Source: Paludibacteraceae bacterium
GTDB lineage: Bacteria > Bacteroidota > Bacteroidia > Bacteroidales > Paludibacteraceae
Direction of reading: 5' to 3'
Assembly: GCA_017477325.1 (NCBI GenBank)
Contig: JAFUWV010000005.1
Span: 2,439-66,438, forward strand
DNA: 64,000 nt
A program made the position numbers and the translations under genes. This document shows, piece by piece, positions 15,654 through 16,997 of the stretch; within the stretch, counting starts at the first letter, position 1; every line of letters begins with the position of its first letter. The notes below the pieces were generated by a model that was not told the origin of the DNA, did no database searches, and saw nothing but the letters and a program-made list of their open reading frames with translations.

Positions 15654-16997
15654 ATGCACAAGGGAGAGATAGACATCATAACGCTGGGGTGCTCGAAGAA
15701 TCTGGTGGATGCGGAGCGACTGATGAAGCAACTGGAGACAAGAGGCTTCAAGTGTGTGCATGACTCTGCCAATCCGCAAGGAGAGATAGCAATAATCAAC
15801 ACATGCGGTTTCATAGGTGATGCCAAAGAAGAAAGCATAAACACCATACTGCAATTCATAGAGCGCAAGAAGCACAAGAAGCTGAAGAAACTGTATGTGA
15901 TGGGGTGTCTGTCGGAGAGATATCTTGCCGACCTTGAGCAAGAACTGCCCGAAGTGGACAAGTACTTCGGCAAGTTTGATTATATGGGGATAGTGGAAGA
16001 GGTGGCAAGAGTTCCAGGTTCCAGGTTTCAGGTTTCAGGTCTCAGGTTTCAGGTCTCAGGAGTTGCCGAGTACGAGAGAGTGCTGACCACTCCGAAACAC
16101 TTTGCTTACCTGAAGATAGCGGAAGGATGCAACCGTTTCTGTTCTTACTGCGCGATACCGCTGATTACGGGCAGGTACAAGAGCCGTCCGATAGAAGAGA
16201 TTGTGGAAGAAGTGAGATGGCTGGTGAAACAAGGGGTAAAAGAACTGCAAGTAATAGCCCAGGACCTGACTTACTACGGCACCGACATATACGGCGAGAG
16301 CAGAATTGCAGAACTGGTGGACAAGATAAGTCAGGTTGAGGGAATCAAGTGGATACGCCTGCATTATGCCTACCCCACACATTTCCCGACGGACCTGCTG
16401 CCAGTGATGCGCGAGAGAGACAATGTGTGCAAGTATCTTGACATCGCCCTGCAGCACTCCACCGACCACATGCTGAGCCTGATGCGCCGCCATATCACCC
16501 ATGAGGAGCAGACCGCCCTCATACATGAGATTCGCAGACAAGTGCCGGGCATACACTTGAGAACCACAATGCTGGTAGGACACCCCGGAGAGACAGAAGA
16601 GGACTTTCAGGCACTGAAACAATGGGTGAAAGAGATGCGTTTCGAACGTCTGGGAGCCTTCAGCTACAGCGACGAGGAAGGCACATACGCCAACCAGCAC
16701 TACGAAGACAACATCCCGCAGGAGGTGAAAGACAGGAGACTGGACGAGCTGATGAGCATACAGGAAGAGATAGCGGCAGAACTCAACAGGGCAAACACAG
16801 GCAAGACGATGCAGGTGGTGATAGACAGGGAAGAGGATGAGTACTACATAGGCCGAACCGAGTTCGACTCGCCGGAGGTGGATCAGGAGGTGCTGATAAA
16901 GAAAGACAGAGAGTTGAAGGTGGGCGAGTTCTACATGGTCCGCATCTCAGAAGCGGACACCTTCGACCTGTATGGAATCATAGTGAACAATGCATAA
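15654..16997 (+). CDS. rimO: Ribosomal protein S12 methylthiotransferase RimO
   Basis: MTTase N-domain ([14 protein letters not shown]), radical-SAM CxxxCxxC ([13 protein letters not shown]) and a TRAM-like C-terminus. The start is moved to ATG 15654, just after the recQ stop at 15637-15639. Confidence 0.9.
   Translation: [447 protein letters not shown]
16011..16059 (+). repeat. Tandem heptamer array (GTYYCAG) x 7 inside the rimO coding sequence
   Basis: gttccag x2, gtttcag x2, gtctcag, gtttcag, gtctcag. It is translated in frame as [17 protein letters not shown]. Confidence 0.95.

Follow-up and report, generated by a model that had tools for sequence, protein, structure and literature searches.

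Long simple sequence repeats (LSSRs) of prokaryotic genomes are built of 5-11-nt units, the heptanucleotide being the commonest, as far as the work of Mrazek et al. 2007 is relayed in PMC4679880. In LSSR-rich genomes, most heptanucleotide repeats lie between genes, and polymerase slippage is given as their origin (PMC4679880; PMC4692102); examples are three heptanucleotide repeats of Calothrix PCC 7601, TAACTGA in Beggiatoaceae, cyanobacteria and some Bacteroidetes, and GGGAATC in Xanthomonas (PMC4692102). Repeats described in coding regions mostly have units that are multiples of 3. Here we analyze a heptanucleotide array translated inside rimO, a gene for a ribosomal-protein modifier, in a 64,000-nucleotide stretch of DNA from a Paludibacteraceae bacterium (assembly GCA_017477325.1, contig JAFUWV010000005.1, positions 2,439 to 66,438; hereafter the window). 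The array is likely a heptanucleotide LSSR, located in a permissive, disordered linker of the enzyme and slipping one or more whole units at a time, its reading frame being held by purifying selection.

Like LSSRs, the array consists of head-to-tail 7-nt units in few variants, and it lies in a genome with many arrays, mainly intergenic and often just upstream of starts; period 7 is the commonest, strains differ by whole units, and slippage is the proposed mechanism. Unit repetition beyond chance, many non-coding arrays with period 7 commonest, and whole-unit polymorphism among strains were all observed here. Unlike LSSRs as described, the rimO array is translated and sits inside a conserved housekeeping enzyme, and the units of this genome are highly diverse rather than dominated by one preferred heptamer like TAACTGA or GGGAATC.

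Contingency loci, the phase-variable genes of Haemophilus, Neisseria and Campylobacter (PMC2651432), offer a second comparison. The likeness lies in an intragenic repeat with a unit length other than a multiple of 3 (3n), in the loss of the product on a one-unit slip, and in a one-unit null allele in a related species. Classical contingency loci are long perfect tracts of 1-5-nt units in surface or restriction-modification genes, ON and OFF at comparable frequency among isolates and in cultures, whereas the rimO tract is imperfect, the sampled same-species alleles are all ON, each allele has a stable number of units, and the gene product modifies a ribosomal protein. Neither a long near-perfect tract nor ON/OFF polymorphism among strains was observed. 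Variable-number tandem repeats with 3n-nt units in inter-domain linkers resemble the rimO array in that the length of a disordered linker varies among strains through unequal recombination or slippage; the rimO unit differs in having 7 nt, with three units per 7-residue period, and only changes that leave the total at 3n survive. The Rickettsia palindromic elements (RPEs) of Ogata et al. 2000 are reportedly selfish repeats inserted in frame into protein-coding genes. As with RPEs, non-coding-type repeat DNA is tolerated here in frame at a surface-exposed or linker site and the peptide is a by-product. RPEs are dispersed copies of one palindromic element of ~100-150 bp, whereas the rimO inserts are locally generated arrays with lineage-specific units; paired GTYYCAG units occur in rimO alone within the window, and a 33-nt core found in two of its alleles has no other copy.

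The gene, its domains and the array, all on the forward strand, are arranged as follows.

15654..16997, + strand: rimO coding sequence, 447 aa plus stop (TIGR01125, PDB 4JC0 match, orthologue start)
15672..15971, + strand: UPF0004 / MTTase N-terminal domain, residues 7-106 (Pfam PF00919)
16002..16061, + strand: strain-variable linker segment, 60 nt in allele A, made of left junction GTGGCAAGA, the array and GA (same-species comparison)
16011..16059, + strand: heptanucleotide array, 7 x GTYYCAG (Tandem Repeats Finder (TRF), unit list, shuffles, AlphaFold)
16116..16625, + strand: radical SAM domain with motif CNRFCSYC, residues 155-324 (Pfam PF04055)
16800..16985, + strand: TRAM domain, residues 383-444 (Pfam PF18693)

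The open reading frame (ORF) at 15654-16997 scores 472.3 bits against TIGR01125, the RimO equivalog model (curated cutoff 356.95), and scores under the cutoffs of the MiaB and MtaB models; T. maritima RimO (4JC0) matches it at E = 3e-93. Judged by model score and by its three-domain architecture—UPF0004, radical SAM with CxxxCxxC, and TRAM, all present in Pfam—it is RimO, of the S12 Asp88 methylthiotransferase family. Cysteines C13, C51 and C85 of the N-terminal cluster and C159, C163 and C166 of the CxxxCxxC motif are invariant columns in a 30-sequence alignment. The start is Met at 15654, orthologues beginning MHKGEIDI in the alignment; a second in-frame ATG upstream at 15621, which overlaps the recQ stop, is not used by orthologues.

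The seven units run, in order, GTTCCAG, GTTCCAG, GTTTCAG, GTTTCAG, GTCTCAG, GTTTCAG, GTCTCAG, so that three unit variants are interleaved with at most two identical units in succession, and units four to seven are two copies of a 14-nt block (GTTTCAGGTCTCAG x 2). TRF reports a period of 7 at 16011-16060, with 7.1 copies, 90% matches and a score of 72. The two-unit pattern GTYYCAGGTYYCAG gave six overlapping matches, all in the rimO array and none elsewhere in the window, and zero matches in every one of 100 dinucleotide-preserving shuffles. The array begins at a codon boundary and encodes residues 120-136 (Met at 15654 being residue 1), which fall between the Pfam UPF0004 and Radical_SAM domains; the peptide repeats every 7 residues, once per three 7-nt units, with the unit being read in each of its three frames. 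A first-pass annotation of the same DNA had described the 49-nt array, its in-frame position in this linker and the arithmetic of its periodicity correctly.

The linker is the sole hypervariable stretch of the 30-sequence alignment. In the AlphaFold prediction (mean pLDDT 83), residues 119-149 form coil and pLDDT falls below 50 at 126-137; conserved GTGGA(A/G)GAG precedes the variable segment and GTTGCCGAGTAC follows it. Aligning orthologues, as the first-pass annotation had proposed, identified the stretch as an insertion relative to most of them: as extracted here, linkers have 17-18 residues in basal Bacteroidales versus 31 in the window. Its claim that a change of one or two units would frameshift rimO was confirmed by simulation, in which +/-1 or +/-2 units led to stops at residue 142, 149, 224 or 231 and hence to loss of the radical SAM domain, and +/-3 units left the frame intact. 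The units GTTYCAG and GTCTCAG have no stop in any of the three forward frames, which does not hold for the intergenic units AGTTGAR and GTGACGG. The antisense strand of the array region carries nothing beyond a shadow ORF, and no clear link between array orientation and replication strand emerged from GC skew. The array was also considered as an RNA element, a reading abandoned because an Rfam scan of window 10-20 kb at E <= 1 returned no match and the array region folds no better than shuffles (z = 0.17).

Contigs of the same species were gathered through RimO relatives together with an identical 91-aa HU protein encoded just downstream, giving 13 contigs from 12-13 metagenome samples; all strain data are consensus metagenome assemblies. 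Samples with this species include SAMN15829977/ERZ28654702, ERZ27317917, ERZ28594015, ERR1278103, JGI 3300010998 and SRR33675025. At exactly one site of rimO, this one species carries at least five alleles, which we call A to E.

Allele A (window, L087): GTGGCAAGA, 7 units and GA; 60 nt
Allele B (L001): 10 units and GT; 72 nt
Allele C (L002/L086, L090, L091): TTTGAAAAG x 5 and TTGGGY, an unrelated 9-nt array; 51 nt, peptide LEKFEKFEKFEEFEKLG
Allele D (L085, L088, L089, L092): 1.7 units, the 33-nt core TTATCCCTTCGGGAACGATCTGCTTCGCTGTGC, 2.3 units and GA; 63 nt
Allele E (L095-L097): GTGGCAAGA, 6.7 units, the 33-nt core TTATCCCTTCGGGAACGATCTGCTTCGCTGTGC, 6.3 units and GC; 135 nt

All five lengths are divisible by 3, and the ORF is intact in every same-species contig. 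The core TTATCCCTTCGGGAACGATCTGCTTCGCTGTGC is translated FLSLRERSASLC in allele D and YPFGNDLLRCAG in allele E; its being read in two frames implies that the peptide sequence of the linker is irrelevant and that frame alone is conserved. Alleles are uniform across independent samples (E in three, D in four, C in three), and carriers of one allele differ by up to 37/1259 nt in the remaining rimO. The idea that unit counts might vary among strains was thus borne out in part: the count differs between alleles (7 versus 10), but all five are in frame and the count is constant within an allele. With the simulated +1-unit product as query, no truncated same-species RimO was found among 5.8 billion protein clusters (best identity 82%). 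An exact-flank DNA scan of metagenome contigs, with a pattern gap too narrow for allele E, gave no match, nor did a species-specific flank scan of genome contigs, and a protein-based metagenome scan had no same-species contig among the matches listed (best 80%). The best RimO of a GTDB representative (L057) is 78% identical, and no GTDB representative carries the locus.

How such arrays behave when free of coding constraint can be read from a sister array nearby.

13312..13402, + strand: 13 x GTKACNG in the recQ 5' leader, without coding constraint (TRF)

Counted with its junction, the recQ-leader array has 14.3, 16.3, 21.3 and 30.3 units in four strain groups, with differences of 2, 7 and 16 units, always whole and not confined to multiples of three. 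These differences indicate that the mutational mode is whole-unit change and that the in-frame restriction is specific to rimO; slippage by whole units and unequal recombination occur often in this population, and survival of only 3n lengths in rimO, against free variation in the recQ leader, is the mark that purifying selection leaves on an active gene. The sister array is the last of a series, 13014-13402 holding three 11-mer arrays ahead of it; over 12990-13402 the order is TCGTTTACGTS x 5, GGGAGAGAATC-type units x 4, AGATAATGGAC x 5 and the 13 GTKACNG units. It stops 56 nt ahead of the recQ start and, judged by eye, apparently lies in the 5' leader, 3' of a putative Bacteroidetes-like promoter (TTTG ... 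TAATTTCG).

Although coding sequence makes up ~85% of the window, the non-coding 15% holds 10 of the 12 short-period arrays, and the rimO array is the only coding array in the window with a unit that is not a multiple of 3. Short-unit arrays of like style elsewhere in the window bear out the earlier statement that the array in rimO and those between genes are alike in kind. In the rimO neighbourhoods of related Bacteroidales (1.27 Mb, redundant strains included), period 7 dominates with 108 arrays, followed by periods of 9 (40) and 11 (38); unit sequences over the same DNA are highly diverse, with no dominant family. Periods of 8, 10 and 6 were scarce there (9, 7 and 2 arrays), odd unit lengths being strongly favoured.

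The protein-cluster search with the +1-unit product also picked up frameshifted rimO genes from other species. In one related species, contigs L298 (2577-2608) and L300, from two samples, carry CTCGAAAT x 4 and have rimO out of frame; the CTCGAAAT array is present in ERZ27280491 and ERZ27280476. These contigs differ from each other by 28 nucleotides; in both, one added 8-nt unit restores a 442-aa ORF, and no other disabling mutation is present. In the 5-unit form, 45 of 46 protein variants (98-100% identity) have 442 aa, and the remaining one has 440 aa with a shortened C-terminus and unchanged linker length. The in-frame 5-unit form stands on well over 100 contig records, versus two contigs for the 4-unit null, and the in-frame unit number is invariant. 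Nulls apparently made by slippage arise, then, but stay rare; rarity of nulls together with an invariant in-frame unit number would be expected under mutation-selection balance if the gene is mildly useful. Together with the variation in unit number between same-species alleles, the one-unit-short null argues that slippage is real. Knockouts of rimO in E. coli show wild-type growth (PMC10002905). A split-protein reading of rimO in L298 and L300 was rejected because the sole start of a C-terminal ORF lies past the first Cys of CxxxCxxC; the 25 synonymous to 1 non-synonymous codon differences between the two contigs were unusable for selection because they are clustered like recombination imports. 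A short third contig, P0247, has a larger out-of-frame deletion that ends in the CTCGAAAT array.

Other Paludibacteraceae carry arrays of their own at the rimO site.

7-nt units: GTKACNG x 7 (L004), GTKARAG x 4 (L098), GTGAAAG x 4 (L014), ATCAGAA x 4 (L108)
Further arrays: GTTTAGC-type units (L024), CCGGAATA x 3 (L026), CTCGAAAT x 5 (P0249 group)

The rimO linker is a recurrent array sink across the family. Linkers have a median of 23 residues where the flanking DNA has arrays versus 18 where it has none (Mann-Whitney p = 5e-5, uncorrected for phylogeny), and in a human-gut species taken as control the 18-residue linker LTDLGSRISEEKDFGRIL is identical in 17 contigs. Between near-identical proteins the linker can be wholly replaced (P0126 versus P0005, L024 versus L023/L299, P0295 versus P0249). 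The linker of some relatives contains in-frame perfect hairpins (L015 6340-6438, L023 6340-6417, L025 6334-6450), terminator-like or REP-like, with stems CCTCCC...GGGAGG and GCCGGATGCCATCCGGC, the latter common to L015 and L025. GTTYCAG repeated at least three times occurs in at least 120 contigs (L178-L297) from many phyla, with up to ~18 or more units in several Flavobacterium and Acidobacteriota, so that the unit as such is not lineage-specific.

Taken together, these data suggest the following course of events. The array would be of the same class as the DNA that makes up the non-coding 15% of this uncultured Paludibacteraceae genome, and would have arisen and expanded where rimO tolerates arbitrary sequence, namely in the disordered linker that joins the N-terminal Fe-S domain to the radical-SAM domain. 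Whole units of the array are gained or lost by slippage, unequal recombination takes place between units, and alleles pass between strains in short recombination tracts, the tract itself not being visible. Selection would then pass those products whose total length is 3n and whose units are free of stops in the three forward frames; the 7-residue peptide periodicity would be a by-product with no sequence-specific role. Single-unit slips would yield null alleles, which would do almost no harm, given that E. coli can dispense with rimO, and yet remain rare.

Several points weigh against this account. Allele A is supported by the window and one scaffold, L087, possibly from the same assembly, and within-strain minority subpopulations that are out of frame would be invisible in consensus metagenome assemblies. 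The existence of nulls in relatives means that loss of function may have some role. Only once was the birth of a repeat caught, in L299, where a fresh 13-nt tandem duplication in the linker shifts the frame. Finally, carriers of alleles C and D show 0 differences over the other 1259 nt of rimO, though the two alleles are unrelated in sequence; short-tract homologous recombination would be the simplest explanation of this swap, its tract ends not being visible. Such an explanation fits the tight clusters of single-nucleotide polymorphisms (SNPs) elsewhere in the same alignments. Linker aside, L088 and L090 are identical across about 4.7 kb, and where they differ elsewhere the SNPs are tightly clustered (6 in 72 nt, for instance); L088 compared with L089, L090 and L092 shows 6-9 SNPs per 70-200 nt in tight clusters (e.g. 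L088 6899-6971 and 1912-2107) and is otherwise identical. Such a mosaic, typical of short-tract homologous recombination, indicates that this process is frequent in the population.

The first-pass annotation had proposed a contingency locus. On such a reading, a hypermutable 7-nt array would toggle rimO ON and OFF by one or two units and create subpopulations with unmodified S12. Consistent with this, the unit is not a multiple of 3; gaining or losing one or two of them cuts the protein short either ahead of the radical-SAM domain or within it; the number of units has shifted over time (7 to 10, or to 13 along with the core); E. coli tolerates rimO loss (PMC10002905); and two samples of a related species carry an otherwise intact allele that lacks exactly one 8-nt unit. 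These observations are outweighed by the five alleles that are all in frame across 12-13 samples, by unit counts that stay constant per allele in independent samples despite diverged flanks, and by the failure to find a truncated same-species product in the protein clusters. In addition, the array, with 90% identity and at most two identical consecutive units, is unlike known hypermutable tracts; the null of the related species is rare and its in-frame unit number fixed; and rimO belongs to a housekeeping class rather than to surface or restriction-modification genes. We therefore regard a contingency locus as decidedly improbable. The mutational mechanism of the first-pass annotation holds, its use as a switch is not supported, and the alternative it had mentioned, a tolerated linker insertion, is favoured by the same evidence. 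It is likewise unlikely that linker arrays of rumen and gut Paludibacteraceae serve as low-frequency reversible rimO switches. If they did, one-unit slips would produce subpopulations whose ribosomes lack methylthiolated Asp88 (ms-Asp88) in S12, and further slips would restore rimO; this would be phase-variable ribosome modification, and the one-unit-short null in two related-species samples would be its OFF state.

A second possibility is that arrays are placed at preferred sites, the linker included, by dedicated seeding or cassette exchange, whether through ectopic templated repair or a mobile array-hairpin-array module. A parallel in the window is the module upstream of uvrA.

18554..18690, + strand: AGTTGAR array, hairpin core and AGTTGAA array, between a gene for a 412-aa HU-domain protein and uvrA

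The uvrA-upstream spacer measures 66, 140, 147 or 222 nt among the same strains (L002, L088 and L094 among them), the module being present in 0, 1 or 2 copies. Its hairpin core is CTCTCACGATCGGCAAGCCGTGGAGAG, and its array-core-array layout is that of rimO alleles D and E. Besides this shared layout, seeding would account for the swap of C and D in otherwise identical 4.7-kb backgrounds and for the recurrence of unit families: the 9-mer of allele C resembles the array at 11305-11434, GTKACNG of a sister species (L004) that at 13312, and AGTTGAA of L110 that at 18554. Yet units over the 1.27 Mb are very diverse and without a dominant family, the core interrupts a unit and shows no target duplication, and the tight SNP clusters nearby show ordinary short-tract recombination at work. 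Nor was the rimO core found in the window at <=3 mismatches, and in the fetched loci it occurs in rimO alleles D and E only. On balance, seeding is very improbable. A reading as a miniature inverted-repeat transposable element or RPE-like element was dropped, as the 33-nt core and the uvrA-spacer hairpin were both sought as dispersed elements and none was found.

Functional tuning of the linker, or diversifying selection on it, would posit that the linker modulates RimO activity or the geometry of the two Fe-S clusters, or that the array is an RNA or DNA signal, and that selection keeps several alleles. The presence of at least five alleles in one species and the repeated replacement of the linker (P0295 versus P0249, L024 versus L023, P0126 versus P0005) would fit. 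But the core DNA is read in two frames and no peptide feature is common to the alleles; the linker is predicted to be disordered, without an Rfam match and with a folding z of 0.17; and neighbouring intergenic arrays are equally or more polymorphic without a coding role. We accordingly think tuning highly improbable, and less probable still. Lastly, that short-read assembly of a repeat made the array or its copy number is scarcely credible, since, although contig L094 of Logan breaks within the array and the copy number of long arrays can be mis-assembled, the 49-nt array is shorter than typical short reads and contains distinguishing unit variants, the ORF is intact in every case, and C, D and E each came out the same in 3-4 samples, under contig names (k141, NODE and JGI styles) that indicate different pipelines.

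Besides the rimO array, TRF found short-unit arrays of similar style at the following places in the window.

Other short-unit arrays: 11305-11434, 13014-13192, 13312-13402, 18554-18610, 37786-37826, 46817-46868

The first is a 130-nt array of 9-mers (AAGTTTGTA, GAGTTTGAG, AGTTCGTTG) with higher-order periods of 18, 36 and 45 nt, between two minus-strand genes, and its unit family resembles the rimO allele C unit TTTGAAAAG. A larger repeat, a 210-nt unit in 1.9 copies at 87% identity (47519-47919), is what we take to be a duplicated domain in a coding region; it is flanked by shorter 6-12-nt repeats at 47305-47489 and 47940-47972. In the window, recQ and rimO overlap or abut (15639-15654), and in the strain of ERR1278103, a bioreactor metagenome (L002/L086), three extra genes lie between them (positions 854-4994), including one for an 852-aa peptidase M6.

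If the LSSR reading is correct, several consequences follow. For annotators, an in-frame repeat whose unit is not 3n would not automatically be a phase-variation locus, and the RimO inter-domain linker would be marked as tolerant of insertions of 51 to 135 nt of arbitrary sequence. The related species would provide a rough natural estimate of slippage nulls, at 2 contigs versus well over 100 in-frame contig records. The finding opens no new biological mechanism. Rather, the array would be a clean natural case of genome-wide heptamer-biased slippage spilling into a conserved enzyme where structure permits, with selection there acting solely on length modulo 3 and on stop codons.

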